DNA of 64,000 nucleotides from an uncultured delta proteobacterium (GCA_963812015.1 CAWETI010000003.1:736001-800000), one strand, 5' to 3'; positions 1,845-30,012 are shown, counted from the first letter of the stretch. Notes: generated by a model not told the origin, from the letters alone. Program-made: numbers and translations.

Positions 1845-1906
1845 TAGCTGCTCTATCTGGCTCCCATATCCCAATATAAAAGTATCAATAAGAAGATCAT
1901 ATATTG
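1845..1906 (+). repeat. tripartite site S1 (left arm + core, degenerate)
   Basis: TAGCTGCTC at 1845; core TAAGAAGATCATATAT, with CATAT 50 bp after CTGCT. Confidence 0.55.
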
Positions 1907-2356
1907 ACCTCTGACCCAACGTCGCCTTTCTTCTTCTACGCTATGGAGAACCCCTTGGTCGAAGCGTGATCACGCCGTAGAAGCGTGTAGGCGCTTTTTT
2001 AGAGCCATTGCGGGGGTCTATCCCTCGGCTTATCCCCCCGACAAAAATCGGTTTGAAATTCTCGGTCCTGGGTCCCATCACCCCGGGTGTGTCTTTTGCC
2101 GGGTTCTCCCCGGGAAACAAAAACGGTATTGGCGAAAATTTTGATATGGCATCCAAGGCAGGCATAACGAGTAGGGGGGAGGGAGTCCCACTCTCCGGGT
2201 TTCTGTTCTTCGACTTTCACCCTGGGCAGGAATCCCAGGCACGGGTCCCCCAGGCCAGGGGCGTAGCGGGGGGAGGCAGGGGTAGGCGGCGGCTTCATGG
2301 CCGATGCTATATCGTGAGGAAAAGCCGCTGCCCCCCATGATTTGTGGTTATGCGTT

Positions 2357-2529
2357 CTTTTCCGGCAGAATGCACTTTTGGTCGTTATTTGTGGTAGAAT
2401 CTTGCTCAGTCATGACATGAACCTCCCAGGTTGTGTTGTGGTTAGGGCCGGTACGGGGTGAGTGGGTACACCCTGGCCGGCTTGCTTATTTTCTGGTTCG
2501 CTTCAAATACTCTTCGACGTCTGTCCACT
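2357..2529. repeat. copy 1 of xis 3' end + hairpin + leader unit (copy 2 at 27760-27936)
   Basis: Long similar stretch including catgacatgaacctccc, gttgtggttagggccggt and ctggttcgcttcaaatactctt; minus strand encodes WTDVEEYLKRTRK* and a 21-aa ORF MTEQDSTTNNDQKCILPEKNA (2348-2413). Confidence 0.85.
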
Positions 2530-2637
2530 GGGGTGGTATGCAGAAGTGCCGGCGGCGCGCGGGGGGGAGTAGTCAGGGTATGGGGTGATGACAGGGGAAC
2601 GCGGGGGGCGCTCCAAGGAGGCTCTGTAACTCTCAAT

Positions 2638-3675
2638 CTACCAGAGGCTCATTTGGGGTTTAGCTTTCGGCGTGGGCTCAGGTATAAGCTTTTCGGCAAT
2701 GACTTGGGCAATCAAAGGAGCGTTGCCACCGGCCCGATTATTGATGATCAAATTTACCGACACACCTTTCTCAATGGCTGTCTGGATAATTTCAACCGTC
2801 TCCAGGACCATCTCCGGGTGCAGCATACCTGCCACAAGCTTGCTAAAAGGATGCGCTTTCGCATAAGCTTCTTCGTACCGCATGTTTAAAGGCGTCATGA
2901 TCCGGATCACACATTCCTTCCCTGCATTGAAAAATCTGCCGTCAGCTTTGGCCAACTGTTTTCTCAAGGGAGGCAGCCAGGTCCAGTGAGATAAAACTTG
3001 CCCGATGCCGTGTTTTGCTAAGACTTCAAAAACTTGATCCCTTAGATAGAGTTCGGTTCTCAATTCCACATGATATCGGGGATCCGTGGGGATCTGGCTG
3101 AAAAATCTGTCCAAGGCCTGGGCCATCTCGTTCACAGGAGCCCGATCTTCCTTGCGCTGATATTCCTGTTCAAAGATGAAGCCAGAGAGGATGGGCCCAA
3201 GCAGATTGACGGCCGGTTCATAGAATTGCTTGGTGAAAATTCCAGGGTTTAGGTAGGCTTCGTTCTTGATGTGCAGATCACTTTGCCTGATCTTTTGCGC
3301 CGTAATCATCTGTGGCACTTTGAGAAGGATGGGGTCGTCCTCTTTTAAGTGCCGGGCATAACTCTGCAACACCTGATAGTTCTGGGTGGGCTGGTAATTA
3401 TGGTCCAAGAGCGGTCGGTAGAAAGTGAAATCGATTTCCAGGACTGGGAAATGTTCGAAATACTCTTCCACGCTGTCGACGGGAAGCACTTCTTCGATGA
3501 ATGGTTTTCCGCCTATGATTTTAGTGCGTTTGGTTATTCGCCCAGCATAGCGGTCCTGGGAATAAATTTGTCCGATCCAGCCGGCATACCGATCACTGGC
3601 AGTCCCGACGAAGACCTTGGGATGCATGGCGCGGAAATGGAAGGTTTTCAGATTGCATTCCTGGTCAATGGGCAT
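2638..3675 (-). CDS. DUF72 family protein
   Basis: VGTAS..Y.GW.G..Y, F..LEIDFTFY, LKVPQ.IT, VELR and INNRAGGNAP motifs. Confidence 0.85.
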   Translation of the reverse strand: MPIDQECNLKTFHFRAMHPKVFVGTASDRYAGWIGQIYSQDRYAGRITKRTKIIGGKPFIEEVLPVDSVEEYFEHFPVLEIDFTFYRPLLDHNYQPTQNYQVLQSYARHLKEDDPILLKVPQMITAQKIRQSDLHIKNEAYLNPGIFTKQFYEPAVNLLGPILSGFIFEQEYQRKEDRAPVNEMAQALDRFFSQIPTDPRYHVELRTELYLRDQVFEVLAKHGIGQVLSHWTWLPPLRKQLAKADGRFFNAGKECVIRIMTPLNMRYEEAYAKAHPFSKLVAGMLHPEMVLETVEIIQTAIEKGVSVNLIINNRAGGNAPLIAQVIAEKLIPEPTPKAKPQMSLW

Positions 3676-4024
3676 GGTTCCAGTTTAATGGAAAAAGGGA
3701 CATAGCCCAACTGCATAGTGGAGGTTAATGGAGAGGTTCCGGTATGCATATTACCATTGCTAAATGGCCCTGAAACGCCCCCAGAAGGCTTGAAGAGCAC
3801 CAACCCTTACTTCTGGCCATTAGTCGGTTGGCTTGCGTTGAAATTTGGGCCGAAAAAAGGACCGTACGTTGCTGTTTTTGACCATCGCCGCCATCGACCT
3901 GAACGCTTCCTATGAGGCTTCCTTTGTTTAGAGCCACTACCCTGCTATTAAGCATGGCCTGCATCTAATGCCTTAAAGCGGGCCAGCCTTAAGTCTGGAA
4001 CCCTGACCGTATCCCTCGTTGCGA

Positions 4025-5872
4025 GTCGAGTAGCGCAGGGGAATCTCACCCCCACGCCCTCACAGATCCGGACGTGAACCTCTCAGCTCATCCGGCTCCT
4101 CTTATCCAGCCGCCGGCCGCACTCCCAGTCGCCAGTGAGCGAATAAATTCGACTCACGCCGGGCAATGCGTCCTAACCAATGGGTTGACTGACGCTGATG
4201 GCCACGCAGCTTCTTAAACTTACGCATGGCCCAACGGGTCAGAGCGCGATTCAGTTGGCGCAAAATCGGGTAAAGTGCAGACTTGTAGTAGCTGCCATAG
4301 TAGTTAATCTAGCCCCGAAGGACTGGATTGAACATCCGGGACAAGTCGTCGAGAGCCTTATCGCTCCTCAGGTGGAGTCGCCAACTACGCATGGTGCGGC
4401 GCATCGTCTTTGCGGCTTTATCGCTCACTGCCGGGCTGAAGCTGATGAAGAACTTGCCCCAGCGATTCTTCGATCTCCGGGGACGAAACGTGAATCCCAG
4501 AAAATCAAACTTCTCGTTGAGGTAGTGGCCTCTCCGATCATCATCCTTGCAATAGACTATCTTGGTCTTTTCAGGATGAAGCTCCAGTTTGCATTGAGCC
4601 AGCCTTCCGGCAATCGCCTTCCTCAATGCCCCAGCTTCCGATTCTGTCTGGCAGTGGACCACCACATCATCGGCATATCTCGCAAAAGGATTCTGTGGAT
4701 AAGTCTTCCGCATCCATTCATCAAAAGCATAGCGCAGGAACAGGTTGGCGAGCAGAGGGCTGATCACCCCGCCTTGCGGCGTGCCCTTCTGCCGGAGCAC
4801 TAAAGTCCCTTCAGCAAGTTGGGCTGGGGCGGTAAGCCACCTTTCGATGTAGAGCAGCATCCATGAACAGTCGGTGTGCTTACGCACCGCCCGCATGAGA
4901 AGGTCATGGTCCAGGTTGTCAAAGAATCCCTTGATATCCAAATCGATCACCCAGTCGTAGCGCCAGCACCTTTTCCGGGTTACTCCAACGGCTTCAATCG
5001 CCGACTTCCCATGTCGATATCCATAGGAGTCTGGATGAAAGCATGGCTCCACCAACGGTTCCAGGTAAATCTTGACTACCATCTGGGCAATCCGATCTAA
5101 TACCGTCGGGATTCCCAAACTTCTCTGGCCGCCACCGGCCTTGGGTATGGTTACCGTACGCACTGGTGGCGGGAAATAGCTCCCCGAGGACATGAGATTC
5201 CAGACCTTGTAAAGGTTGTTCTTCAACCCCTTCTCAAAATCTGCAATCGACTCCGTGTCTACTCCGGCCGCTCCCTGGTTTGCTTTTACCCTTTGAAACG
5301 CCTTCCAGACCACCCATTTTGAAATCTCAAACGGCTTTGCTTTATTCACCGGTTCCTCCCATTTCTGGTTGACCAAGCCATAAAGCTGAATGAGACAACC
5401 CCTTCACTCCATCCCCATTACGGGACTTCTTCGCTACTACGGGTTGTTCCGCCCCTGTGCCCCGCCTCGGTACTCTCACTCTCATGGGTCCTCCACTTGA
5501 GTTTCTCCCTTCACATCGGAGCGACAGGTTCCCACGTTCCACGCAAGAGCCTGAGTCAAGATCATGCCACCTTCATGCCGGACACCACCCAAGCAATAAG
5601 CAGGCTCCCCTTGGGCTTATACTGGGACCACCATACCCCCCAGTTTTGACGTCGTCCTTATGATTTCGACACGTCATCAGTGGTTCGCTTGCGCTCATCT
5701 TCTTGACCCATACCTGACGCAGTTGCTCTGCGCCTTTTCCTTAACGCTCACCACCCTGACTCTTAACCAGCGCAGCTTAAGGCGGTTTGGAACCTGTCCC
5801 TGCAGACCGATTCCGAGGGGCCTACCCTCATCTCTTGCGCAACACCGCACTCAGCGTGCGTTCGTGGCGCAC
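4025..5872 (-). mobile_element. group II intron, RmInt1-like (bacterial class D, IIB)
   Basis: 5' GTGCG at 5872; domain V GAGCCGGATGAGCTGAGAGGTTCACGTCCGGATC and domain VI ending ...CTACTCGAC at 4025; EBS1 (5629-5635) and EBS2 (~5659-5664) complementary to the 5' exon. Confidence 0.92.
4102..5349 (-). pseudogene. ltrA: intron-encoded reverse transcriptase/maturase with premature amber codon
   Basis: RT motifs GAAGVD, LGIPTV.DRIAQ, DLDIKGFFD, GTPQGGVISP, RYADD; TAG at 4309-4311 where RGW(INYYG) is expected; frame continues INYYGSYYKSAL...FAHWRLG to TAA at 4102; no endonuclease domain. Confidence 0.85.
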
Positions 5873-5932
5873 TATGGCGATCATATCTTCATCTCTCTGG
5901 AATTTTTGAGAAGCTTTGCTAGTGGCAAGCTA
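5873..5932 (+). repeat. tripartite site S2 (core + right arm), interrupted by the intron
   Basis: Joining 4024 to 5873 gives GATATG-GCGAT-CATATCT; TGGCAAGCTA 41 bp after CATATCT. Confidence 0.8.
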
Positions 5933-6074
5933 GTGGCCTCTTCCTAAATACTTCTTAGAGAATGCCCTTTGGAAAAAATTATGTGCAAATTTACAGAGTA
6001 TATGGAGAATCTTAATCTTAAGAAAAGCTTTAAGAATAATTACCCTATATATTGAACTGTAAAGGAGAAACACC

Positions 6075-6608
6075 ATGAACCGGTCTATTGGGAAAGTGGC
6101 GATGGTTCTGCTGGTGGTTGCTGTTCTTTCGGGTGGGATGCTGTCCGGAGCTTCGGGTGTCTGGGCCAAGGAGAAGCCCGGCACTTTGGCGAAGCAGGTC
6201 CAGGGAAGCTGGACCCTGGTCTCCATATACGTCGAGCAGGACGGCAAGAAGATCGAGCCCTTCGGTTCACAACCGAGGGGTTTGATAACCCTGACTCCAG
6301 ACGGCCGTTTCTCGTATATCATGTTGAAGGCAAGCCTTCCGAAGATTGCTGCCGACAACCGCCTGAAGGGTACCGCCGAGGAGAATCAGGCTATTGTCCA
6401 GGGATCTTTAGCCGCCTACGGCACTTATAAGGTGGTGAATGAAAAAGAACATGCCGTGCAGGTGCACATAGAGGGGAGCACCTTCCCCAACTGGGATGGT
6501 CAAGATCAGAAACGGACTTGGACCGTCAAAGGAGACGAGCTGACTATCACCAACCCTTATGCGTCAGTGGGTGGGATTGCCTACCTCGTCTGGAAACGGG
6601 CCAAGTAG
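6075..6608 (+). CDS. exported lipocalin-like domain protein
   Basis: Signal peptide, GSWTLVS, G.I..T.DGRFS, AAYGTY, PNWDG..Q.R motifs; AAGGAG SD. Confidence 0.8.
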   Translation: MNRSIGKVAMVLLVVAVLSGGMLSGASGVWAKEKPGTLAKQVQGSWTLVSIYVEQDGKKIEPFGSQPRGLITLTPDGRFSYIMLKASLPKIAADNRLKGTAEENQAIVQGSLAAYGTYKVVNEKEHAVQVHIEGSTFPNWDGQDQKRTWTVKGDELTITNPYASVGGIAYLVWKRAK

Positions 6609-6621
6609 TCGGGGCGCGAGT

Positions 6622-6660
6622 CAAAGGGGGTTGAGGAACAACCTTTACTCACCCCCTTTG
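6622..6660 (+). terminator. hairpin after lipocalin gene
   Basis: CAAAGGGGGT...ACCCCCTTTG inverted repeat. Confidence 0.55.
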
Positions 6661-6667
6661 GTGTCAG

Positions 6668-6774
6668 TTACTGCTATTTATGTGCCCATCAAGGAGACTT
6701 AGAAGGTTTTCGCTATACAGATCATATCTTCAACTATTAAGCATTTCGGAGAATGGGCTGATAGTGGCAAGTTA
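6668..6774 (+). repeat. tripartite site S3 (complete)
   Basis: CTGCTA 6671, CATATCT 6723, TGGCAAGTTA 6765 (spacings 52/42). Confidence 0.8.
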
Positions 6775-7024
6775 TGCGGCACCAATTCCATCGCTCAAAG
6801 CCGGATAAGACGAGCAGTTCATGCCTCATTCTGGGAAGGCGCAGGGGGTCATCCTCGCACCTAAGATGAAACCAAAATCCCAAGGCGCGGTGCACCATAA
6901 TTTATCGATTACAGCTTGACTAAGCAAAGACAATAATTACTTTTCGGGAGAACCACTTTAAACCACAAAGCGGAGAGCACTATATCCATAGCAGCACAGC
7001 GCATAAGATCAGATAACGAAATGA

Positions 7025-9244
<2,220 letters not shown>

Positions 9245-9369
9245 CCGTAGCATAAACGTCTTCGAGGGCTTCTGAAGCGTATGCTGAACTGCAATTCGGA
9301 TGAGCAGAAGGCTATAACCGCCGCGAGCTGACGGATGTTTTGAACGATCAACAGAGGCTATAGCAACAT

Positions 9370-9861
9370 CACAACACGCACCTCCACCGGCTGGGGTCCA
9401 ATTATCACCTGATTCCGGTAAACGCGCCCAAATTCGCCCCGGGGACGAATTACCAACGGGATGGCTCTATACGAGTGGATGACAACGGCGAGGACGGCCC
9501 CAACTACTGGCCCAACAGCTTCGGCGGGCCGGCCCCGGACCCCGTCAAGGGGGAGCCGTCCTTTAAGGTGTCGGGTCTGGCGGGGCGCCACCCCTTCAAA
9601 TTCCCCAATGACGACTTCGTGCAGGCGGGCAACCTTTACCGGAAGGTCATGACAGACCAGGACCGGGCCAACCTCATCGGCAACATCGTGGCCCATCTGG
9701 GGAACGCCTTGCAGGGGATCCAGTTCCGCCAGGCGGCCATCTTCTTCAAGGCAGACAAAGATTATGGCAGTCGCGTAGCTCAGGGCCTGGGGCTCGACGT
9801 CAAGGAAGCGGAACGCCTGGCCGGCATGACCCAGGAAGAGCGGGCAAAAGCTACAGACTAA
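9370..9861 (+). pseudogene. katA: C-terminal remnant of a monofunctional haem catalase
   Basis: In-frame THLHRLGSNYHLIPVNAPK...YQRDG...NYWPNSFGGP...DDFVQAGNLYR...ADKDYG.RVA; the whole N-terminal catalytic part is missing. Confidence 0.85.
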
Positions 9862-9903
9862 CACTTAGTGCCTTGAATCGATAAGGACGGGGAGAAAAGT
9901 GAC

Positions 9904-10080
9904 ATGAACCCATAGGAAGCACAAGCACACTGGCGTTGCAGCAACTGCAGCTTTACCCTCCAGGCGGCCAAACCGTCGGACATCTGCCCGATGTGTTGCG
10001 GTCAATGTGAGTTTAAGGATGTGAGCTGTTACCTGCCAGAGTGCGGAGGCACTGGCCAGGTTGATCCGCGTTTGAAGTAA
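9904..10080 (+). pseudogene. rubredoxin-like metal-binding small protein with early amber codon
   Basis: MNP*EAQAHWRCSNCSFTLQAAKPSDICPMCCGQCEFKDVSCYLPECGG; TAG at 9913-9915; GGAG SD upstream. Confidence 0.7.
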
Positions 10081-10252
10081 GCAGTCCGGTCTCTTGTCGC
10101 CCTTAACCTTTCAGAGGGGCCTCCCAAGAGAGGGGGCCCCTTCTTCCCTTGGAGCTTGAAGAAGTTGCCAGCCGGTTTATTATATAAACGGCAATAACCT
10201 CCTGATGGATACCGGCAAAATCAAGATGCATAAAATGAGGAGAGATTAGGCG

Positions 10253-10690
10253 ATGCAACTTCCTGAATACGTCACGGTCCAAGAAGTTCAGAGAGTTTGC
10301 CAGGAACTGGGCCTGCGTGACTGGTCCCAAATGACGGAGCCCAAAGTCAGCCCGGAAGAAGCCCGGATAATCCTTGCAGAAGTGAATACCCAGGGCATGG
10401 ATATTCCCCTGGAAGACTTTTGTGCCGGGCTGGAAGTGGAATTGGAGCATGGCACCCAGTTCAAAGATGCCAACGTGACCAACAACCACCCGATTCTCAC
10501 GGGGAAAATCGTCCTGGCGCACCTCAAGGAGTCCATGGACTATCACAAGCGGCTGGAGGTGGCCGAAATCGAGGGCGATATCCTCAAGGCCCTGGTGGCC
10601 AAAAACCTGGCCAAAGTGGAAGCTCTCCACAAAAAGCTGGCTCAGGCGAAATTGGCCCTTCACCAAGCGGAATCAAGACAATTAGGGTAG
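10253..10690 (+). CDS. DUF5661-like hypothetical protein
   Basis: GLEVELEHG...T.KIVLAHL.E..DY motif. Confidence 0.7.
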   Translation: MQLPEYVTVQEVQRVCQELGLRDWSQMTEPKVSPEEARIILAEVNTQGMDIPLEDFCAGLEVELEHGTQFKDANVTNNHPILTGKIVLAHLKESMDYHKRLEVAEIEGDILKALVAKNLAKVEALHKKLAQAKLALHQAESRQLG

Positions 10691-10736
10691 TCCATCTCTT
10701 TTTTCTTCTTTAATAATTCCGGGAGGAGAACTGTTC

Positions 10737-11372
10737 GTGAGGTGTATGAGACTCTACAAGATAGCCCTCAGCCTCCTGTTGCTCTCCGCCTTTTTTCTGG
10801 GATCGAGGACCGCCATGGCTTTAGAAGAAGCCAAATACAAGGTGCTTGAACGTGCAGAGGATTTTGAGCTCAGGCAATATGAACCCCGAATCGAGGCAGA
10901 GACTTTGGTGGAGGGTGACTTCAAAGACGTGGGCAACGAAGGTTTCCGGCGTTTATATGACTATATCTCCGGGAAGAACCGCAAGCAGCAAACCATCCCC
11001 ATGACGGCTCCAGTGTCCCAGGAGGCCTCTTCTGAAAAGATCCCCATGACCGCACCTGTCAATCAGGCACAAGTGGGAGGAAAATGGCGGATCACCTTCC
11101 TGATGCCTTCTCAATATTCGATGGAAACTCTCCCGCAACCCTTGGACCCGAGAGTGCAGTTGACCAAGGTTCCGGGACTGCTCATGGCTGCCCTCAGTTA
11201 CTCCGGCACCTGGAGCAGGGGGCGCTATGAGGGAAAGGAGAACCGGCTGAAGGAACTCATTCGACAAAAGGGCCTCAAAATGGTGGGTGACCCGGTTTTT
11301 GCCAGGTACAATCCACCTTTTATGCCCTGGTTTTTGCGCCGCAACGAGGTGCTGATCCCAGTAGCGCGTTAG
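10737..11372 (+). CDS. SOUL family haem-binding protein
   Basis: GFRRLYDYISG.N, duplicated IPMTAPV, C-terminal YNPPF.PWFLRRNEV. Confidence 0.9.
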   Translation: MRCMRLYKIALSLLLLSAFFLGSRTAMALEEAKYKVLERAEDFELRQYEPRIEAETLVEGDFKDVGNEGFRRLYDYISGKNRKQQTIPMTAPVSQEASSEKIPMTAPVNQAQVGGKWRITFLMPSQYSMETLPQPLDPRVQLTKVPGLLMAALSYSGTWSRGRYEGKENRLKELIRQKGLKMVGDPVFARYNPPFMPWFLRRNEVLIPVAR

Positions 11373-11415
11373 GACAGGATATGGTTGCTCTGAAGGGTTT
11401 TCACAGGGGTATCTG

Positions 11416-12939: not shown

Positions 12940-12957
12940 CCATTATCCACTGTCGCC

Positions 12958-14298: not shown

Positions 14299-14301
14299 CC
14301 T

Positions 14302-18060: not shown

Positions 18061-18078
18061 GGCCGCTGCTTCCTCCGC

Positions 18079-18900: not shown

Positions 18901-19097
18901 ACCCCATGATGTGCCTCTTTAATATTGGCTCTTAACAGCGCCGGTTCGTGGGCAGCAAGTGATTTTCCCTATCTCTCCTGGCGGCGCAAAACGGCCTACA
19001 AGGGTGCGCCACCAAATACATCTTCGCGTCTTATGATTGAGGCTGAGCTAAACCTTATATCAAATGCCTGGTCGGCGCAGCTGGGTAAATGTGACGC

Positions 19098-19158
19098 TAG
19101 CTGCTATGATTCGACACTTATCACGAAGCCAAAACCTTTCCATATCCAGTCCATATCT
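19098..19158 (+). repeat. tripartite site S4 (left arm + core)
   Basis: TAGCTGCTATGATTCGACACTTATCAC; CATATCT 51 bp after CTGCTA; degenerate CGGTAAC at +43. Confidence 0.85.
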
Positions 19159-19257
19159 ATACTTCTTGGCCTGAAAAACTCCTGCCGTTCCCGCCGGTAA
19201 CCTGGGGTTCCCCTATCACCGACATCTTAAATCTTCCTCTCCACAGATGTCCGTGCC

Positions 19258-19321
19258 AGATATGAAGATCATATCTGCAATTTCTCCGACGCATTCGATA
19301 ATTGCTGGTCCTGGCAAGTTA
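19258..19321 (+). repeat. tripartite site S5 (core + right arm)
   Basis: Perfect AGATATG-AAGAT-CATATCT; GATAAT at +27, TGGCAAGTTA at +42; right arm nearly identical to S6. Confidence 0.85.
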
Positions 19322-19592
19322 TCAACTGTTTCCATTTTTAATTCCCGCCTGAAAAAAAAAATGGCCATCGCCGATCCTGTCTGAAGCGCACCTTTGACTA
19401 AGGAAATGTCAAGCAGAAAAGGACCGCGGCCGTTCCCGTAACGCTAGGCAATCGCTCTAAGGGAAATTTCTGTAGAACTTTATCAATTTAAACCCACCTG
19501 GTATATCCTTAGCGAATGGCCGGACCCCGTTGCCACACCTTTCGAGGTGCTTATATTAATAGAAATTGGATTAGTTCAACAAGCGGAGTGGG

Positions 19593-20351
19593 GTGGCCAT
19601 GCGACTCGGGGCGAGATCCTCAATGAAACCATACCTTGGAGTGTTGTTTTTCCTGTGCTATCCGGGGATATTCTTTTCCCCAGGCTTTGCACTTTGCGAC
19701 GGCACTCAGTCTGATCTGGACCACAAATTAGCCGCGGGGGAGATCATTGTCTCTTCTAAAGAAGTTCCTGGAAAATCCCTCAAATGCGCCGAGATGGTGG
19801 GAGTTGTTGATGCCCCACCGGAGATCGTTTGGCAGGTGATCACTGATGTTAATAATGCTAAGAATTTCATGCCACGAATTCGTAATAGTATGGCCGTTGC
19901 TCCGGAGAAAATTCCCGTGATTTTGCAAAGTAGAGCGACCCGAGCTGAAGAGGTGGAGCAATTACTCGGCCCTATCCCAGCAGACCCGGATAGTTATCGC
20001 ATTCCTGGGGGAACATATACCGTGTATTCATATAGCAATGTTGATTTACCGTGGCCTCTTAATAACAGATGGCATATCACCAAAGGGTTAAGGGATGAGA
20101 CTCGGGCTGCCCAACATTGCTATCACAACTCGTGGTCTCTCGTAACCGGTAACATCCGAGAAAATGCTGGTGAATGGATTTTGGAACCATTTGGCTCTGC
20201 TAAAACAAAGGCTACCTACAGGCTTTGTACCGATCCCGGTGGCGTCATTCCACAGTTCCTTGTCACGCAAGGTACTGATACAACCATGCCCCAAATCATT
20301 AAAGCGGTCAGGGAACGGGCTGCTAAGCTTTTGGGACAGCCATTATCTTGA
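19593..20351 (+). CDS. exported SRPBCC/START (polyketide cyclase-like) protein
   Basis: VVDAPPEIVWQVITD..N..FMP, LPWPLNNR, G.W.LEP, DPGG.IP. Confidence 0.8.
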   Translation: MAMRLGARSSMKPYLGVLFFLCYPGIFFSPGFALCDGTQSDLDHKLAAGEIIVSSKEVPGKSLKCAEMVGVVDAPPEIVWQVITDVNNAKNFMPRIRNSMAVAPEKIPVILQSRATRAEEVEQLLGPIPADPDSYRIPGGTYTVYSYSNVDLPWPLNNRWHITKGLRDETRAAQHCYHNSWSLVTGNIRENAGEWILEPFGSAKTKATYRLCTDPGGVIPQFLVTQGTDTTMPQIIKAVRERAAKLLGQPLS

Positions 20352-20411
20352 AATTCTAAAAGGCTCAATAAGTTAAAAGGAACGGTATTGAGGTACTGAA
20401 GAAGCTCAAGG

Positions 20412-20518
20412 CATCTGCTATGATCCAAAAATTATCACGAAGCCCAAAACCTCACTTATCCAGATCATATCTGCAATTTCCCCGACGCATTCGATAATTG
20501 CTGCTCCCTGGCAAGCTA
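20412..20518 (+). repeat. tripartite site S6 (complete)
   Basis: CTGCTA 20415, ATTATC, CAGATCATATCTG (CATATCT 20466), GATAAT 20493, TGGCAAGCTA 20509. Confidence 0.9.
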
Positions 20519-20575
20519 TATTGAATTCCAATATCTAATAAATCTTTTGGGTCCTCCTTAGCGGATCCTGCCTGC

Positions 20576-21220: not shown

Positions 21221-21224
21221 TATT

Positions 21225-21287
21225 TATATCTACATCATATCTGGAATTTTTCCCACACAAGCGATAATTCCCGATGCTGGCAAGTTA
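21225..21287 (+). repeat. tripartite site S7 (core + right arm)
   Basis: TATATCTACATCATATCTGGAATTTTT; GATAAT at +27, TGGCAAGTTA at +42. Confidence 0.85.
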
Positions 21288-21321
21288 TCAAAAGATAGGT
21301 GATTTTCTTTCACCAGATTTA

Positions 21322-24300: not shown

Positions 24301-25362
24301 GGCCACCGCCACCATGGCGGTGGAGGCCGACAGTCCCCCCATAAAGACCAGCAGAGCGAGATAGGGATGTCCGGTTTGCAAGGGAATGCGCAGGACAAAG
24401 GTATCGGCCTGTTCCCGGGGCAAGCCTATCAACAGTCCCCCGAAAGCGATGGGCATGACAAACAGGCTAATCAACAATAGATACACCGGAAAGAGCCAGA
24501 CTGCCGTCAGGATATGCCGTTCATCGGTATTTTCCACTACCGCCATGTGGAACATCCGGGGAAGAAAGTGGATGGCCCCCATAGCCAGGAGAGTCAGCAC
24601 CATAAGAAGGGTATAATTGTTGTGAGGCCCGGTGTTCACCAGGAGAAGCTGTTGAAATTCGGGGCTCTGCCGGATACGCGCGAAGATTTCTCCCCAGCCC
24701 GGGAAGAGGCCAAACGTCACCAGGATACCCAGGCTAAAAAAAGCCAGGAGTTCGATCAGGGACCCGAACACCACTACTCCCACTAACCCTTCGTGACGCT
24801 CGGTGGGGTCCAGATGGCGAGCCCCAAACAGAATACCGAACATGGCCAGAAGCAAGGCCACATAAAAGGCGGTGTCTTGATAAACCGGGATGGTGCCGGG
24901 ATGACAAACTTCTTTACATACTAGGATATTAAACGTATCGGAAATTGACTTGAGCTGTAGGCCGATATAGGGGGTTATGGCCAGGAGCACCCCCACGCTA
25001 GCGAGGACCCCCAGAAAGGCCCCTTTGCCATAGCGTAGCGTCAGGAAATCTGACATAGTGGTCAGGTTGTTTTCCTTGCAGATGCGCAGGAGCTTGCGCA
25101 AACCGAACCACCAGGAAAAAGCGATGATGGAGGGACCCAGGTAGATGGTGAGAAAGGTCACGCCTGAGGTGGCCGCCTTGCCGACGCTGCCGAAAAAAGT
25201 CCAGGCGGTGCAATAAACCGATAGAGAAAGGGCATAGATATAGGGATTGGCAATAATGCTCTTGCCCAGGGCCCGTTGCCGGTCCCCATAATAGGCGATG
25301 GCAAAGAGCAGCAAGAGATAGCTAAAGGCGGTTACTGCTACCAGGCCGTTACTGAGCCTCAT
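21322..25362 (-). CDS. sodium:solute symporter-fused sensor histidine kinase (CbrA/CrbS-like) with 2 GAF + PAS
   Basis: N-terminal YALSLSVYCTAWTFFGSVG SSS domain, GSIGPAAA linker, GAF-like segments, PAS, SHEIKNPL H-box, DTGKG/GSGLGL. Confidence 0.88.
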   Translation of the reverse strand: MRLSNGLVAVTAFSYLLLLFAIAYYGDRQRALGKSIIANPYIYALSLSVYCTAWTFFGSVGKAATSGVTFLTIYLGPSIIAFSWWFGLRKLLRICKENNLTTMSDFLTLRYGKGAFLGVLASVGVLLAITPYIGLQLKSISDTFNILVCKEVCHPGTIPVYQDTAFYVALLLAMFGILFGARHLDPTERHEGLVGVVVFGSLIELLAFFSLGILVTFGLFPGWGEIFARIRQSPEFQQLLLVNTGPHNNYTLLMVLTLLAMGAIHFLPRMFHMAVVENTDERHILTAVWLFPVYLLLISLFVMPIAFGGLLIGLPREQADTFVLRIPLQTGHPYLALLVFMGGLSASTAMVAVASISVTTMLLNSLVMPLTTRLKLQERITPHLLTIKRAGILFLILLGYFGYHLVFPTVMLVDIGLIAFCGVMQLAPAMIGALYWRDATRWGAMAGLASGFLLWAYTLVFPYLIEAGWFSVSILSEGPFALAFLKPNAFLGLAGLDRLSNAFFWSLFFNTGTFVTVSLLTVPSPLEEEQARRFVGVFERERGRPIEKRLTYLPSLEQLTEFMEKIIGPRKAAQARRAFLREVTIPEAEWGDREKLQLADFIERTIAGSIGPAAAQVVVEGYLSSLGSKMEDVFDLFGRISSSLEESEQQLKIRVSELSVLYEAARRLASTLYFPEILDGVLGVLVEKLGVEKCAVRLLDEDGFLHIKAFRGLPPEARAQVGKPDSASLLGECLSTSQVISVPDSTAVADRLQGLVEEEALNSLVLAPITAETLTLGVLTAASSQKGFFTKEHIRFFQSLAGHLGLAVRTANMEEALRLDESRLEAVWQLSQMTKATLQEITDFALEEGVRLTKSKIGYLAFMNEDETVLTMHSWSKTAMDQCAIIDKPIVYPMETTGLWGEAVRHRRPIITNDYAAPNPFKKGYPEGHVEVRRHLNIPVFDGDRIVAVAGVGNKEEEYDESDVHQLTLLMNGMWWQIKRQRAEEELTAEVERGIYFQKLLIHTCMDGIVANDVEGTIRTFNETAAKILGYEPEEVLGKMNVKDLYAPGQLQKIDAKIHSPDYGGVDILENYETWMIPKNGTPVPIWLSARVLYENDREIGMIGHFKDLRERKRMEEELLRSERLAVLGKMAAHISHEIKNPLMLIGGFARQVLKDVAQDPQKNLEKLQIIVDEVKRLEDFLVEVGSYAKFSEPQKRPGDLNALIQETCQRLEPSLRESNLELVLKLDPDLPEIQFDPGHLRQVILNIAKNGIEAMDTGGTLTVATGRHADRVFVQILDTGKGIPPEILEKIFQPFFSSKPKGSGLGLAISQKIIEAHQGEITIESEPQKGTRVTIFLMIESHTQH

Positions 25363-25592
25363 TCCTTTGATTCCTCCTGGGCCGGCGGTTCATGGGCAGT
25401 GAGCCGGCGACTCAATGCATAGAGCCCAGTGATGGCCAAGATCCAAACCCCAAACAGGTAGAAAACCAGAAGTGGATTCCCTGCCACTAAGGTGTCGCGA
25501 TTAAAAATTTGCAACAAAGGATAGTTTAAGAGGAGAAAATCTAGAATCCCCAGGAGGGCCAAGAGCTTTTCTCTTTTCGTCGTAGGGAGCAT
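25359..25592 (-). CDS. small membrane protein coupled to the SSS-kinase
   Basis: LLNYPLLQIFN...PLLVFYLFGVW; stop overlaps the kinase start. Confidence 0.7.
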   Translation of the reverse strand: MLPTTKREKLLALLGILDFLLLNYPLLQIFNRDTLVAGNPLLVFYLFGVWILAITGLYALSRRLTAHEPPAQEESKE

Positions 25593-25894
25593 TATTTTAT
25601 CTCCTGCTCTCACCTGCTCAGGTCAATTAATTTCATCCGGCCCCCGAAAGCTATCTATTAGATAAGGGCCGGGTGAGGTCCGCACCGATCTCCCCAAGAC
25701 TGTTACTCTTTAAAGCAAACGGGGACAGTACGTAACGCAATTAAGGTGAAGTCTGGAAAATCTCATTTTACCGGTGCTTCAGACCTGCTGGTTATATCCT
25801 TCCCTTCATTTTGGTTGGAACAGACCAGAGATTTTTTGTTCCCACTTCGGGCAAGGGGCCTCTCACATTTGTTTGATGACTGCATCGATAGAGA

Positions 25895-26464
25895 TCAAAA
25901 ATCTTCCTCCTCCTTCAAGAAGTTCCGCATCATCAATGCCACATCATAAGTTTTTCCTTTCATGTCCCTAAAGTAGTCTTCGAAGTTGGCTCTGACCTTA
26001 AAGCCTCTGGACTGAAAGGCTTTGATGACGTGCTTCAATTCGGTAACCACCTCCACTTTCAGCCAATGGAGCTTTTCTTGTGAGGCAAGGTCAATCAATT
26101 CATTTAAAATCAACGAGCCTAACCCCAAACCCTGGAAAGGTCTGGCCAAGAAGATTTGCTGGATCTCGCCGACATTTAGGGCGGCATTTTGACCCCGATA
26201 GAGATTGAGGGTGGCAACTGGCTGTTTAGTTTCCATATCTTCCGCCACTAAGGCCATTATTCTGTGAGAATTTTCCGGGTTCATCCAATAATCGACCACC
26301 TTCGAGTTCTTAACATCTTCTTTACAAAACTGGACGTCTTCTTGGGGAGCTTGCTGGAAAAGCTTGATGAGGCCATCCCGATCTCGTCCATTGAGGAACC
26401 GGATCACCACCGTTTTCCCGTTGGTCAAGGTGGCGAACTTGCGGTAAGCACAATAATTTTGCAT
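25895..26464 (-). CDS. GNAT family N-acetyltransferase
   Basis: FQGLGLGS acetyl-CoA motif, AF..RGF. Confidence 0.85.
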   Translation of the reverse strand: MQNYCAYRKFATLTNGKTVVIRFLNGRDRDGLIKLFQQAPQEDVQFCKEDVKNSKVVDYWMNPENSHRIMALVAEDMETKQPVATLNLYRGQNAALNVGEIQQIFLARPFQGLGLGSLILNELIDLASQEKLHWLKVEVVTELKHVIKAFQSRGFKVRANFEDYFRDMKGKTYDVALMMRNFLKEEEDF

Positions 26465-26994
26465 GGCCCACCCCCTTACTCAAGAAGTTTATAGCCTTAC
26501 TTTTTTATAGGTTTTTCCTTCTTGGTGGCGATTATCGGATAGGCAGCAAACGCAGCCGTATCCTCTCAATTTGCAGTTTAGGCGCTTAATGCATGACCAG
26601 TGAAAAATCTAAAAAGCGGGGAGCCCCTCTCGGGAGGAACGAATTAAAGCTTGGAGGATGAAGTAGGAAGATGAGAAAGGCAACCCGGGTATGTCAGCCT
26701 TTTTTTCCTTCATTAACTCACCTCCCTCACCTCAGAAAATAATGGGAGAGAAATTTACTTATAATTTAAGTATTCTTTAAACTTTTGTCAATGAGCCTGG
26801 GGCGCGGGTATTCAGTGTCACTATCAAAAAGCTGCAAGGCTGCCTTGAGCCAATACCGCTAAGCCATTCCGGGCGTCCGATGGTGGGCGGGGCTTACTCG
26901 AATTGAGCATGACGATAAAAATCCAGCCCTAAAGGGGGGATAGGCCTTCCATATGGACGGCAGAATCCCCCCTTAACCTCATATCTATCTACAG

Positions 26995-27135
26995 TATCAG
27001 CTCGGATCCTCCGGACTGTAGTCCAGTGGCGCAAGAGGCCCACACCAAACCCGGGAGTTGGTTCCTGATGTAATTCTTATGGTTATACACCGGAGCAGGT
27101 CATTGGGAAGCTGCGGGAAGCCGAAGTGGCGTTAT
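26995..27135 (+). mobile_element. IS3-family left-end fragment
   Basis: YTPEQVIGKLREAEVAL (27084-27134), typical IS3-family OrfA N-terminus, truncated at site S8. Confidence 0.65.
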
Positions 27136-27191
27136 CTGCTATGATCCGACACTTATCACGGAGCCAAAAAGCTCGCATATAGAACATATCT
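27133..27191 (+). repeat. tripartite site S8 (left arm + core)
   Basis: CTGCTATGATCCGACACTTATCAC identical to S9; CATATAGAACATATCT core. Confidence 0.85.
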
Positions 27192-27273
27192 TTAAATTTT
27201 CGCCACCCCCCCAAGCCCAGAGTCGCCCATTAATTTCGTCCTTGCACTCGTCAGCTTATGTCTCCCTGCCCCG

Positions 27274-27819
27274 TCACTTCGGGTTCGCCGCCAGGTAGTC
27301 GTTGATGAACTGGTCGACTTGGTCCCCCACTAAATTTCGGATTTGAGTTATGTTGGTTATCTTGCATGTTCCTGCGTATCCCGTCGTATGCCATACCACA
27401 CCAGGGATTTTAAAACCACTTTCGATGGCAACTTTCTTCTTTAATTGCACCTTGATTGAATACGCACAGAAAGTAGAGCCAGGCTTGGTGACGGCATTTA
27501 CGTTCACATAAAGGTACGGCATCCCCGGCGTCCCTTGGCTTTCCTTCTCCGTGAGAACCCTGGCTCCGGCCTTGCGTAGTCTCATCTCGACGTCCGTCTG
27601 TATCTGGTCTCTGATCAAGCCCAAGCGCTCGATTTCTGGCTTAAGGTTCTCGACCAAAACGTGCACCCCTTTCAGCCCGACAAGAGCCTTTTGCTCATCA
27701 GTAAGGGCATGAGAGACAGCCGGAAGCAGCAAAAGTACCACCACCAGGGCCATTACCCTCTTTTCCAGGCTCAGGATGCATTTTTTGTCGGTACTTATGG
27801 TAGAATTTTGTTCAGCCAT
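27274..27819 (-). CDS. hypothetical exported protein fused to the conserved leader
   Basis: Start MAEQNST after GGAGG; hydrophobic signal-like segment; LKGVHVLVE...VEMRLRKAG...PYLYVNV...DQFINDYLAAN. Confidence 0.7.
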   Translation of the reverse strand: MAEQNSTISTDKKCILSLEKRVMALVVVLLLLPAVSHALTDEQKALVGLKGVHVLVENLKPEIERLGLIRDQIQTDVEMRLRKAGARVLTEKESQGTPGMPYLYVNVNAVTKPGSTFCAYSIKVQLKKKVAIESGFKIPGVVWHTTGYAGTCKITNITQIRNLVGDQVDQFINDYLAANPK

Positions 27820-27893
27820 GACATGAACCTCCCCGACAGGTTTGGTTGTGGTTAGGGCCGGTCCGGTGATGCCCATGCTCCAGGCCGGCCTGC

Positions 27894-28070
27894 TTATTTC
27901 CTGGTTCGCTTCAAATACTCTTCCACGTCTGCCCACCTGATACGCACGGCTCGCCCCAGCTTATGATGAGGCAATACACCTTCACGAACCCGCCGCCATA
28001 TAGTGTCTTTTGATAGGCCGAGCTTTTCGGCTATTTCCTTGACCGAAAAAAACTCTCGTTCTCCCGTCAT
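27894..28070 (-). CDS. xis: excisionase (HTH_17/AlpA-like)
   Basis: Manual translation MTGEREFFSVKEIAEKLGLSKDTIWRRVREGVLPHHKLGRAVRIRWADVEEYLKRTRK (58 aa, below the ORF-track cut-off). Confidence 0.88.
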   Translation of the reverse strand: MTGEREFFSVKEIAEKLGLSKDTIWRRVREGVLPHHKLGRAVRIRWADVEEYLKRTRK

Positions 28071-28444
28071 TCCATTACCCCCAAACCATTCGAGTGATTA
28101 TTTTAATTATAAAATACTTTGATATGCATGTAAGTGCAGCTGTATGCAATATTAGGGATAAAATATATAGGATTTTGCAAATTGCATCGGCTCTATCCTT
28201 TGCCCCGCCATGCCCAGGCTGCCCATTTATTGCCGCGACTGTTATCGCTGGCGGATGGCTATCCTACCCCTCATCGGATTGCTTAATGAAGGACTTTTTC
28301 CGGGTAGTCGATGGTCTTGTTCCAAACCGATATGGATGGATGATCTGCGCGCCAAAAATGATCCAAAGATTATGCTGAAGTAGTGTCACGAAGGGAGGCA
28401 AAGAGATCTGGCGTAGCTGATATGTGATGGCTATAAACATTTAC

Positions 28445-28548
28445 TAGCTGCTATGATCCGACACTTATCACAGGGTCCAAAACCTTCCATATTCAGACGA
28501 TATCTGGAATTTTTACCACTTAGATGATAAGAGATTAGAATGGAAGCT
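28445..28548 (+). repeat. tripartite site S9 (complete, right end 1-nt deletion)
   Basis: CTGCTA 28448, GATATCT 28499, GATAAG 28526, TGGAAGCT 28541 (spacings 51/42). Confidence 0.85.
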
Positions 28549-28583
28549 CGTGAAGAGGTACCTCCTGGATGGAGCAAGGCGGC

Positions 28584-28748
28584 ATGGGTAATAAGCAGAT
28601 AATTGGTATATCGGTGGGCGCGTTGGCGGGATTTCTGATTGGATATCTTGGCCGCTGTGCGGGAGGCACAGCTTGAAGACTGACCTCCAATCCCTGGTCA
28701 GGGATGATCGTAGGCGCGCTGGTGGGATTTCTGGTAACCCGTCATTAG
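28584..28748 (+). CDS. small two-TM selenoprotein, DUF6132-like
   Basis: MGNKQIIGISVGALAGFLIGYLGRCAGGTA-U-RLTSNPWSGMIVGALVGFLVTRH; TGA 28674-28676 where C..GTC.LTSNP has Cys; hairpin ATCCCT-GGTC-AGGGAT downstream. Confidence 0.75.
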
Positions 28749-28807
28749 TTAGTCAAAGTTTCGCTTGATTTCTGCTAAGGCTTGCAACACCAAAGACTGG
28801 TATCCAG

Positions 28808-29860
28808 ATGGGGATGCAAAGAATGAAAAGATTTGGAATTTTGTTAATCGCAGCAATGATGGGTTTGGTGCTTGCCTGTGGCAGCCAGGAAGCGAAAGCT
28901 CCCGCCAAACCGGCTGCCCTGCCGGGAAAGGCCGAGAAGGCAGCGCCCCAAGCCCTACCGGCGCAGGTCGCGCGTATGGAGATTCACTCGTTTCCGTCCA
29001 TGACGTTGACGGATCAGCAATTCCTGACCGGTCGCAAGGAAGGCAAACCGGTCACCATCGCGGGCGAGCTTCGCCTGCCTCGCCCGGGAAATGATCGCCT
29101 ACCGGTAGTCGTCCTTATACATGGCTCGGGTGGAGTGTCAGGTTCTGTCCTGGATTGGGAACAGGATCTCAATGCAATGGGCGTGGCAACCTTCGTCCTC
29201 GACAGCTTCACCGGGCGCGGCATCGTGAATACCAACTACGATCAGTCACAACTTGGGCGCTTAGCGATGATCGTCGATGTCTATCGCGCCCTCGATGTCC
29301 TGGCGAAACACCCAAGGATCGATCCCACCCGGATTGCCCTCATGGGGTTTTCGCGGGGTGGCCAGGCCGCGCTCTACGCGAGCCTGAAGCGATTTCAGCG
29401 CCTGCACGGTCCTGTGGGTCAGGAGTTTGCAGCCTACATCGTCTTCTACCCGGATTGTAACACGGCATACCGCGACGACGAGGACGTGGCGGACAAGCCG
29501 ATCCGGATCTTTCATGGCAGCGCCGATGACTATGACCCGATTGCGCCGTGTCAGGCCTATGTTGAGCGGCTGAAGGCGAAGGGCAAGAATGTCCAGCTGA
29601 TTGAATATGCCGGTGCAGGGCACAATTTCGATAATCGGGGGCTTAAGACGCCTCTAAAGCTTGAGAGAGCGCAGACGACCAGACGATGCGAATTGGCAGA
29701 GGCAGAGAATGGCATGATCGTCAATGTCAAAACCAAGCAGCCGTTCACCTACGCCGATCCTTGCGTGGAATATGGGCCGACGCTGGCTTATAACGAGAAG
29801 GCTTCTACCGAGGCTAGAAGGGCAGTCAAGGACTTCGTTACAACTACACTTAAGCTGTGA
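28808..29860 (+). CDS. dienelactone hydrolase family lipoprotein
   Basis: Lipobox LACG, HGSGG, GFSRGG nucleophile elbow, HG.ADD, GAGHNFD. Confidence 0.85.
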   Translation: MGMQRMKRFGILLIAAMMGLVLACGSQEAKAPAKPAALPGKAEKAAPQALPAQVARMEIHSFPSMTLTDQQFLTGRKEGKPVTIAGELRLPRPGNDRLPVVVLIHGSGGVSGSVLDWEQDLNAMGVATFVLDSFTGRGIVNTNYDQSQLGRLAMIVDVYRALDVLAKHPRIDPTRIALMGFSRGGQAALYASLKRFQRLHGPVGQEFAAYIVFYPDCNTAYRDDEDVADKPIRIFHGSADDYDPIAPCQAYVERLKAKGKNVQLIEYAGAGHNFDNRGLKTPLKLERAQTTRRCELAEAENGMIVNVKTKQPFTYADPCVEYGPTLAYNEKASTEARRAVKDFVTTTLKL

Positions 29861-29950
29861 CCCGAGTTTTCAGAATGATGGCCTGCCTGTTGAGGCGCGG
29901 AAATGAAATCGGCGCTTAACCTTCAGCAGCGGCGTTATCCGCATGAAAGA

Positions 29951-30012
29951 TAACTGCTATCTCTCCGCACCTCTCCTCCCGGCATTTGGCTTGCTGATAT
30001 GCTTACCATATT
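29951..30012 (+). repeat. tripartite site S10 (left arm + core)
   Basis: TAACTGCTA 29951; GATATG-CTTAC-CATATT 29996-30012; the following ~80 bp are homologous to 1900-2000. Confidence 0.7.

Follow-up and report, generated by a model that had tools for sequence, protein, structure and literature searches.

A repeat family of an uncultured delta proteobacterium probably derives from a small mobile element with a Xer-like tyrosine recombinase

The insertion sequences (IS) of bacteria are units of about 1 kb in which a single mobility gene lies between imperfect terminal inverted repeats, and they occur together with gene-less derivatives, the miniature inverted-repeat transposable elements (MITEs), and with derivatives in which the ends flank a passenger gene, the mobile insertion cassettes (MICs). 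In this article we describe a repeat family built on the same plan, found in a 64,000-nucleotide (nt) stretch of the genome of an uncultured delta proteobacterium (GCA_963812015.1, CAWETI010000003.1:736001-800000). The whole stretch is referred to as the window, and positions are those of the window unless a contig is named. In its working the family is comparable to an IS accompanied by MITEs and MICs, the enzyme however being a Xer-like tyrosine recombinase. Terminal repeats are common to recombinase-bearing and miniature copies; the miniature copies come in a long and a short form; copies are numerous, intergenic, restricted to one lineage and located at unrelated loci; and at two places the ends flank a passenger gene with no mobility gene. 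The differences from IS are that the element gene encodes a tyrosine recombinase (Pfam PF00589) and not a DDE, DEDD, HUH or serine transposase, and that the copies are strongly co-oriented, show no target-site duplication that we could find and have flanks resembling the opposite terminus, which suggests conservative site-specific insertion. To our knowledge, no family in ISfinder has a Xer-like tyrosine recombinase.

The Correia elements of Neisseria offer a parallel for the miniature copies. They are about 100-150 bp long, have inverted repeats of ~26 bp, occur in two lengths, long and short, distinguished by an internal segment, and are abundant between genes; they are associated with a TA duplication and have no known autonomous partner. 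The present family resembles them in its long and short forms and differs in having an autonomous partner, which encodes a tyrosine recombinase. Simple Xer-related recombinases carried by mobile elements include the RitA/B/C trios, TnpA of Tn554, IntBrujita and XerT (Smyshlyaev et al. 2021, PMC8138268). As far as the part of that survey used here goes, they share with the enzyme described below a two-domain architecture (core-binding plus catalytic) without an arm-binding domain and a location on a mobile element, and differ in being parts of multi-gene transposons, phages or integrative and conjugative elements (PMC8138268). No description of a single-gene tyrosine-recombinase element of ~1 kb with miniature derivatives was found in the literature, the same part of PMC8138268 included, which is no proof of absence.

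The original prediction, made from the sequence of the window, listed at least ten co-oriented copies of a ~105-bp tripartite site and interpreted them as the boundaries of gene cassettes in an array resembling integrons or pdif modules. We searched the source genome (G000, 3.96 Mb, with contigs C2 and C3) and related genomes (other G numbers) with two nhmmer profiles: a short-form profile built from 11 full copies gathered genome-wide, which represents a 108-bp form, and a long-form profile of a 226-bp variant, built from an alignment of 11 long forms. Extracted loci carry L numbers, L045-L079 being loci from public metagenome-assembled genomes (MAGs). Within a copy, L and R denote the left and right ends, core 1 the core near L and core 2 the core near R.

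The profile scan for a co-occurring tyrosine recombinase, suggested together with the original prediction, found one between L and R ends at C2:302468-303522. This 1,053-bp unit consists of an L end (profile positions 2-89), a recombinase frame of 262 codons on the strand opposite to the ends (about 280 amino acids (aa) with the N-terminal part), and an R end (162-225). It is the sole copy in G000, and no recombinase gene is present in window 1-32000, as the prediction had stated; a tblastn search of G000 gave no close paralogue, only Xer-type matches at 24-30% identity. Relatives of the gene occur in 8 of 18 genus genomes, G000 included. Among eight loci in the other genomes, both ends stand beside the gene in G015, only the L end in G014, G007:C104 and G016, and only the R end in G010; at G007:C142 an L copy is present in a non-adjacent position, and no end was found at the G006 and G009 loci. 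A scan of species-representative genomes gave 43 further loci in MAGs labelled Desulfobaccales, Syntrophobacterales, Syntrophobacteraceae, Desulfobacterales or "delta proteobacterium", and at no fewer than 12 of the 43 (at least 12/43) both ends were found, at constant positions in a unit of about 1,050 bp. The suspected tyrosine-recombinase system is thereby borne out, since the same L and R ends flank a Xer-like gene in G000, where it is a pseudogene, and at these related loci. Some MAGs carry the gene twice or more. In one of them, two loci (L057 and L058) are 99.5% identical across 1,045 bp and have unrelated flanks; their comparison fixes the element ends as CTGCTATGATC ... CCTGGCAAG and shows a recent duplication to a new locus.

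The encoded protein has a Phage_integrase domain (PF00589, E 1.8e-21) and a SAM-like N-terminal domain. The best NCBIfam model is archaeal XerA at 116 bits, with a cut-off of 220 bits, and the protein stays far below the XerC and XerD cut-offs. Among solved structures the best match is PDB 4a8e (E 1e-15), by its annotation a probable XerC-like tyrosine recombinase; the Arg, His-x-x-Arg, His and Tyr positions align with its chain. The protein is not a typical Xer dimer resolvase: its scores are below the cut-offs, and its gene, a pseudogene in the case of G000, is located between element ends and occurs in only 8 of the 18 genus genomes. A large protein collection contains 5,126 relatives at E<=1e-10, and many of the closest lie on contigs of only 1.0-1.5 kb, as is usual for repeated elements after assembly.

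In G000, the short-form profile matched 66 places on contigs C2 and C3 with E<0.01, or 87 if E<=1 is allowed; of the 66, our rough gene calls put 62 between genes. The matches form about a dozen clusters genome-wide, which coincide with stretches of lower G+C content (0.51-0.56 versus about 0.59-0.60). The family is present in 11 of 17 other genomes of the genus that were searched and in none of 13 genomes from the rest of the family and order. With the long-form profile, 12 full-length 226-bp copies were found. The long form has two direct cores, CATATC-N5-CATATC at positions ~50-68 and AGATATG-N5-CATATCT at ~165-183. The 108-bp short forms, of which there are about ten, equal long-form positions 2-70 plus 164-226 and have one hybrid core. 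Many other copies have an intact right end and are variably truncated on the left, most commonly starting at ~161-165 and otherwise at 41, 61, 64, 86, 108, 128-136 or 148-159, and left-containing copies stop between positions 51 and 152. The L and R ends are imperfect inverted repeats of each other, TAACTGCTATGATCCGAAACTTATCA matching the reverse complement TAACTTGCCAAACCCTTCACTTATCA at about 17 of 25 positions in our alignment of the consensus, in agreement with the predicted inverted arms.

The relationship between the long form and the recombinase-bearing unit can be read from the right part of the two. The recombinase gene of the full element starts a short way inward of the right end, where both its start codon and its Shine-Dalgarno sequence are found. 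CAT and CCTCC still stand at that place in the long form, the right part of which can be aligned with the DNA upstream of the gene. Since the start region is kept, the long form is probably an internally deleted element. A peptide encoded on the minus strand of the long form was considered as a separate feature and rejected, as the ATG varies between copies and is a relic of the recombinase start.

We conclude that the sites in the window probably descend, as non-autonomous copies, from a small mobile element that measures 1,045 bp when complete and encodes a Xer/XerA-like tyrosine recombinase. What is directly shown comprises the common ends, the recombinase between them in several species, the two near-identical copies at different loci, the cargo carriers and the exact breaks of homology described below. 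The complete element begins with the L end CTGCTATGATC and stops at TGGCAAG of the R end, with imperfect inverted repeats of ~25 bp, directly oriented ATAT-N7-ATAT cores near each end (CATATC-N5-CATATC on the left, AGATATG-N5-CATATCT on the right) and a single recombinase gene between them on the opposite strand. The 226-bp long form would have lost most of this gene, and the 108-bp short form everything between the cores; left-only and right-only copies would be truncated at a core or close to it, and in the cargo carriers another gene would have taken the place of the recombinase gene. The recombinase would excise the element as a circle, whose joined ends, TGGCAAG-nTAn-CTGCTAT, would serve as the recombination site; insertion into look-alike targets, often beside existing copies, could produce the co-oriented clusters, and the termini may act as hot spots for the exchange of family members and of neighbouring gene blocks. 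The varied truncations and half copies fit the decay of a mobile element. Given that the only recombinase of G000 is dead, the copies in the window are probably fossils if no recombinase reaches them from another source.

The copies in the window illustrate most of these forms. The repeat is real and far above chance: the pair GATAA-N8-11-TGGCAAG occurs four times in the window against 0.02 expected, and none of 100 shuffles reached four. The repeat search recovered left halves at 19097, 20411, 27132 and 28444 and right halves at 19260, 20456, 21226 and 58841. A complete 226-bp long form spans 19098..19323 (long-form profile 2-226, E 2.3e-60) and consists of the L end, core 1 CATATCCAGTCCATATCT, an insert of ~95 bp, core 2 AGATATGAAGATCATATCT and the R end ending in TGGCAAG; on the opposite strand, the insert still has the ribosome-binding site and start codon that belonged to the lost recombinase gene, as seen both in the alignment of the 11 long forms and in comparison with recombinase-bearing copies. 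The predicted perfect inverted-repeat core at 19258, AGATATG-N5-CATATCT, can be read directly in the sequence. A complete 108-bp short form, in which L and R meet in a single hybrid core, lies at 20413..20519 (profile 3-108, E 8e-26) between the convergent SRPBCC and PEMT/ICMT-like genes. The near-constant spacing claimed for the sites holds in this copy, where CTGCTAT is followed by CATATC after 51-52 nt, and CATATC by GATAA after 27 nt and by TGGCAAG after 43 nt.

The remaining window copies are partial or diverged. The right half at 21225..21289 (core 2 and R end; profile 45-109, E 3.7e-11) is 5 nt from the start codon of the PEMT-like gene and is followed by the 3' end of a 1346-aa GAF/PAS histidine kinase gene. 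The left half at 27133..27207 has the L end and core and then ~12 nt of R (profile 3-77, E 3e-12; long profile 2-74), and the copy at 28445..28542 has the L end, core and a truncated R end without the TGGCAAG terminus (profile 2-99, E 1.4e-19). Another right half, at 58834..58903 (profile 39-108, E 3.8e-7), is beyond the range covered by the original prediction. Two further sites match the profile weakly. The one at 6668..6778, upstream of katG, is a diverged full-length variant with the start TTACTGCTAT, the core GCTATACAGATCATATCT, the end GTGGCAAGTTA and a differing left arm by direct reading of the sequence (profile match 6709-6775, E 0.056), and it has an 85% identical counterpart at G008:C46:17504-17611. 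The one at 5873..5935 comprises a diverged core and R end (CACTATGGCGATCATATCT ... GTGGCAAGCTA; profile match 5879-5935, E 0.71); its motifs alone weakly suggest membership in the family. All window matches are on the + strand, these two included. The list of ten copies is therefore revised: the sites at 19098 and 19258 are one copy, those at 1845 and 29951 belong to another family, 58834 had been missed, and those at 5873 and 6668 are diverged variants with weak profile matches.

Whether genes are captured by such sites can be seen most clearly away from the window. At C2:1185949-1187619, an L end (3-152) and an R end (136-226) flank a gene for a 431-aa B12-binding radical SAM protein, placed on the strand opposite to the ends as the recombinase gene is, and on either side of the insert the element is present as far as the GATAT arm of core 2. 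On its right, this copy is flanked by DNA that resembles the flank of two others, a truncated recombinase-bearing copy in G016 (90% identity) and a long-form copy in G007 (82%), so that the three species share a single insertion of differing content. Relatives of the radical SAM gene in G009 and G016 are 81-82% identical over the open reading frame (ORF) only, and neither has an element beside it. At C3:449410-449842, L with core 1 and core 2 with R enclose an opposite-strand ORF of 90 aa that is preceded by a ribosome-binding site of its own. The clear cases of gene capture thus lie inside the L/R frame, where the passenger replaces the recombinase, and not between sites as expected of integron-like or pdif-like cassettes. 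No gene block in the window has the form of L, passenger gene and R.

An alternative interpretation, close to the original prediction, is that the L-core-R unit is an inter-cassette site and that the blocks between sites are mobilized by a tyrosine recombinase acting in trans at the cores or termini. The co-oriented copies between unrelated genes suggest such an arrangement, and so does the comparison of the blocks among species. Five backbone segments are 84-87% identical to G008 and G003, as compared with 89-97% identity to G008 for the island blocks; at C3:1489.7-1491.0 kb, a 1.2-kb block reaches 97% identity with G008 and 93% with G003. Five blocks that adjoin one another at C3:1001-1014 kb are spread over five contigs in G008, in three cases at a contig-internal position. 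The block boundaries fall at CTGCTAT and TGGCAAG to the base. The SRPBCC (polyketide-cyclase-like) block at 19312..20421 (+ strand) is bounded on the left by an R terminus and on the right by the CTGCTAT start of the next L end; it is 90.7% identical to G008:C127, where it stands beside DNA that is 550 kb away in G000. On the right, the break falls exactly after CTGCTAT, and G008 continues with a third element family. On the left, similarity jumps at TGGCAA, and the right ends upstream are different alleles. Two blocks common to G000 and G008 (91% and 94% identical) end exactly after CTGCTAT, as ...GGCATCTGCTAT and ...TTTCACTAACTGCTAT, beyond which G000 has the main family and G008 another family. 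Homology between the kinase genes of G000 and G007 begins at the left core edge (21223); G007 has a full L+R copy at this place, with a left end where G000 has the PEMT-like gene. The claim that copies lie at junctions of unrelated DNA is upheld by these comparisons, in which homology between species breaks exactly at the termini or the core.

Assembled contigs from four sequencing runs were also placed on the window, X1 being the run that holds the window stretch. After the SRPBCC gene, where G000 has a short form, a contig of another run, X3 (record 18), has a long form, which indicates that forms can replace each other at one site; one junction was thus found in four states, namely the short form, the long form, the third family and unrelated sequence. 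One contig of another run covers 19356-20421 and extends past both sides. No contig of run X1 joins across a block. An apparent skip from 19158 to 19296 in these contigs was traced to other short-form copies, with 18-19 letters differing between the sides, and was discarded.

The exact breaks fit site-specific events at the element termini and core. They do not establish that the element moves blocks, because synteny among these species is scrambled in general, and different neighbourhoods alone prove little. Several observations speak against the blocks being cassettes. The unit is self-contained, with inverted-repeat ends and its own recombinase, and moves as a 1,045-bp whole; many of the supposed array sites are only halves; and cargo is found on both strands (SRPBCC on +; the PEMT-like, kinase and GNAT genes on -), as the prediction had noted. 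The copies, 66 in all, do not form a single cassette array but are scattered over the genome, a pattern that the prediction itself had listed among its grounds for refutation; the ~105-bp unit reads instead as a MITE-like deletion derivative of the 1,045-bp element with inverted-repeat ends. No attI-like platform or adjacent integrase accompanies the copies, the sole recombinase being dead and on another contig, and no circular cassette and no precise gain or loss between two sites was seen among the comparisons made. The radical SAM insert, with its core-2 borders on both sides, is an observation in favour of cassettes. We consider this interpretation unlikely.

Described cassette systems lead to the same assessment. 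The family is like integrons in its tyrosine recombinase, in co-oriented sites between unrelated genes, in exact homology breaks and in gene-sized inserts bounded by recombination-site-like cores. It differs in having neither hairpin attC sites nor an attI/Pc platform, in a site that is itself mobile with its own recombinase, in cargo of either orientation and in copies throughout the genome. The integron-integrase models of NCBIfam score 51.8 bits (cut-off 265) and 32.5 bits (cut-off 435), and no GTTRRRY-type attC boxes were noticed in reading the consensus. The repeat system fails the tests that define integrons, that is, IntI, attC and cassette orientation. The sites of pdif modules are 28-bp dif-like sequences (11-6-11) that alternate in orientation and are served by the host XerC/D. 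Those described here are 108-226 bp long, with 6-7-6 cores, in one orientation, chromosomal and with an element-borne recombinase of their own. The likeness to pdif modules, within the portion of the two reports drawn on here (PMC5790767, PMC9947245), lies in modules bordered by short Xer-type sites and in a mosaic that differs between Acinetobacter plasmids. On the whole, the repeat system does not look like pdif modules.

A different type of explanation is that the copies are invertible switches, such as fimS or the invertons of Bacteroides, or structural or mRNA-stability elements of the repetitive extragenic palindrome (REP) and BIME type. Inverted repeats of ~25 bp flank a segment of 60-180 bp that includes the upstream region of the recombinase, the copies are intergenic, and the layout of the ~1-kb unit recalls the hin segment of Salmonella. 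Against this, the inverted repeats are imperfect (about 17/25), every copy within a region has one orientation in the assembly, and no flipped form occurs among the contigs placed on the window, which drop rare variants. A co-oriented downstream gene exists for only 41 of the 62 intergenic copies and is missing for 21, and 13 copies lie between convergent genes. RNAalifold applied to the 11 long forms found no conserved fold on either strand (-11.6 and -14.0 kcal/mol), pairing being limited to the terminal repeats and the 6-bp core arms; the earlier statement that the sites lack attC hairpins is supported by this result. A scan of the whole window against Rfam at gathering thresholds yielded nothing at the repeats, only two group II intron domains and a tRNA. 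REP sequences are palindromes of 20-40 bp that accompany a single-copy HUH Y1 transposase, the RAYT, and the present unit differs from them in its length of 108-226 bp without a stable hairpin and in its tyrosine recombinase gene. Half copies and variable truncations also fit mobile-element decay, and we regard both variants of this explanation as very improbable. Two related candidates were rejected: an RNA or single-stranded DNA hairpin is ruled out by the lack of conserved structure, and a sigma-54 promoter (TGGCAAG-N4-nnGC) is contradicted by the -12 GC being present in a minority of copies and by the 21 of 62 copies without a co-oriented downstream gene.

We also evaluated the flanks of the repeats, at 110 R junctions and 30 L junctions, allowing 7-mers up to two mismatches. 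A CTGCTAT-like 7-mer is located exactly 4 nt past TGGCAAG at 15 of the 110 R junctions (neighbouring offsets 0-2; random 7-mers about 1%), and a 7-mer like the R terminus (TGGCAAG, GTGTCAG or GTGGCGG) is located at offset -10 at 8 of the 30 L junctions (neighbouring offsets 0-1; random about 5%). One natural right end, in L053, reads GTGTCAAG. The targets may therefore resemble joined ends, as would be expected of a conservative recombinase, and the fixed offset of the CTGCTAT-like 7-mer fits a recombination-site half better than a duplication.

A number of findings weigh against the element model. The look-alike half-site is present at only 14% of the R and 27% of the L junctions. No target-site duplication was found, in that neither L057 and L058 nor the G000 copies have a constant direct repeat beside them. 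Five comparisons of 18-20-kb G000 stretches with relatives revealed no empty site, that is, no match of a relative that spans an element position with the element absent. Having found neither a duplication nor an empty site, we can only infer insertion and its mechanism. The joined-end pattern TGGCAAGnTAnCTGCTATGA, searched for exactly, gave 27 matches in metagenome contigs, none of which is an element, and no circle or excision product was seen among assembled contigs, where rare products drop out. The sequences do not decide between crossover at the termini, at the cores or at both. The recombinase of G000, the sole copy in that genome, on contig C2, is a pseudogene with a GAA-to-TAA stop, and that of most relatives needs a change of frame at an A-run, so that an active enzyme in any of these genomes is conjectural. 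Finally, the orientation of the copies is + in 24 of 24 cases over C3 722-1012 kb and - in 10 of 10 over C3 1477-1961 kb, with a switch near the GC-skew turn at C3 ~1.45 Mb. The gene strand bias is merely 63% and 53% in the two regions, respectively. The matches at C3 415-600 kb, mostly - in positive skew, are an exception to the uniform orientation. Local spread beside existing copies would keep the orientation within a cluster, not over hundreds of kb, and the near-complete co-orientation on this scale is left unexplained by the element model.

The frame break of the recombinase occurs at a conserved A-run after about codon 21 (MKVSKAVNLFLDYHKLNSQKK, then NTIRAYG...; L045-L079, L018, L019, L021, and C2:302619-303404 in G000). 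The two parts of the gene could both be located at 23 loci. A +1 shift is required at 17 of them, and this need holds across A8, A6 and A7 lineages that are mutually only 61-70% identical; three are in frame, including L068 (A7) and L070 (no run), and L079 needs -1. Such a pattern looks like programmed slippage or phase variation rather than decay. An A-run frameshift site in the mobility gene is also characteristic of IS1- and IS3-type transposases. A more far-reaching proposal, which we put forward only tentatively, is that IS-sized Xer-recombinase elements in bacteria of the Desulfobaccales/Syntrophobacterales type have given rise to a distributed, integron-like capture system derived from a transposon, in which the slippery A-run would gate the recombinase, the cores would be docking sites for gene swaps and the termini would be points of block exchange.

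The two sites at 1845 and 29951 match neither profile and belong to a second repeat family, identified by BLAST and alignment. The copy at 1845..2010 (+) has the start GATAGCTGCT(C)TAT and the core-like sequence AGATCATATAT; its right part is unrelated to the main family and ends in a terminator-like hairpin followed by a T run. The copy at 29951..30070 (+; GATAACTGCTATCTCTCC ... GATATGCTTACCATAT ...), 0.8 kb from a tRNA-Arg gene, is 93% identical to C2:310937-311058 and about 90% identical to three other places. Other copies of the second family were found at C2:310937, C2:810043, C2:1665355 and C3:722707. All that the second and main families have in common is the first ~10 nt (GATAnCTGCTAT) and a GATATG-N5-CATAT core ~50 nt further in. 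A third family begins in the same way and has a GATATGGATATC motif equally far in (G008:C127, L011 5108-5267; C2:925883-926039; C3:1654878-1655051); in other respects it, too, is unrelated to the main family. Judging by these shared motifs, the TAnCTGCTAT start and the GATATG...ATATC-type core ~45-50 nt in may be the recognition target of a recombinase common to the three families.

The whole repeat finding of the window's left part lies in a variable island of ~54 kb, the right border of which is a tRNA-Arg(CCT) gene at 30876..30954 (- strand; ARAGORN and Rfam). The far border is a direct repeat of 56 nt of the 3' part of the tRNA at C3:712828-712883, beside which (C3:712828-714215) are genes for a 398-aa phage-type integrase, a DUF3854/DUF927 primase-like protein and a helicase. 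Relatives retain the tRNA and LptD genes and differ to the left of them. The 398-aa integrase of the island is unrelated to the recombinase of the element. In G001, a partial tRNA repeat is found 9 kb from its own tRNA-Arg gene.

A group II intron with a reverse transcriptase/maturase ORF (Pfam RVT_1 and GIIM) occupies 4024..5841 on the - strand (Rfam RF01999, 112.7 bits; RF00029, 56.2 bits). Its ends were set at 4023/4024 and 5841, where the matches of relatives stop, and it is not a member of the repeat family; the diverged copy at 5873..5935 directly adjoins its 5' end. A possible L part of that copy at 3937-4023, separated from it by the intron, agrees only in CTGCTAT and is not claimed. 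A contig of G010 is 97% identical over the 5' end of the intron and 36 nt of flank (5736-5877), and the intron may home into sequence linked to the repeat family.

Pfam assigns the genes of the window to lipocalin-like, KatG, photolyase, flavin and PNPOx redox, SRPBCC, PEMT/ICMT-like, GAF-PAS kinase, GNAT and dienelactone hydrolase-like proteins, so that the cargo names given in the original prediction are broadly right, the exceptions being "xis" and "exported protein", which have no Pfam support. Genes at 1999-2636 (-) and 27274-27936 (-) are paralogues from a family without a Pfam match, 85-91% identical over two stretches (2366-2528 versus 27772-27936), and the first seems to be split in two ORFs. 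G000 has two katG genes, at 7034-9244 and at C3:~1012369-1014000, each beside a repeat copy, and the katG of G008 is nearer to the second (89%) than to that of the window (86%). Compared with G005, where katG is directly followed by an NmrA/DUF2867 gene, G000 has an insertion at window 9364-11345 that contains catalase-related, DUF5661 and SOUL genes. A block of ~400 nt that looks non-coding, C3:1005821-1006219 (L030 7821-8219), lies between two copies and has counterparts of 87-90% identity in G008, G005 and G003, at places free of the element; its sequence reads like that of a structured RNA gene.

If the element model is true, it would add a new mobility mechanism to the simplest bacterial elements, that of a single-gene element with miniature and cargo derivatives that relies on a Xer-type recombinase. 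The conserved A-run frameshift would then be an IS-style expression brake on a tyrosine recombinase. Elements of this kind are invisible to IS-finding pipelines and are annotated as "XerD/integrase". With about 280 aa and short defined ends, the system would be a compact one for site-specific recombination and a possible tool for genome engineering. For the sediment bacteria considered here, the model would explain a conspicuous repeat family that fragments their assemblies and marks their variable islands.

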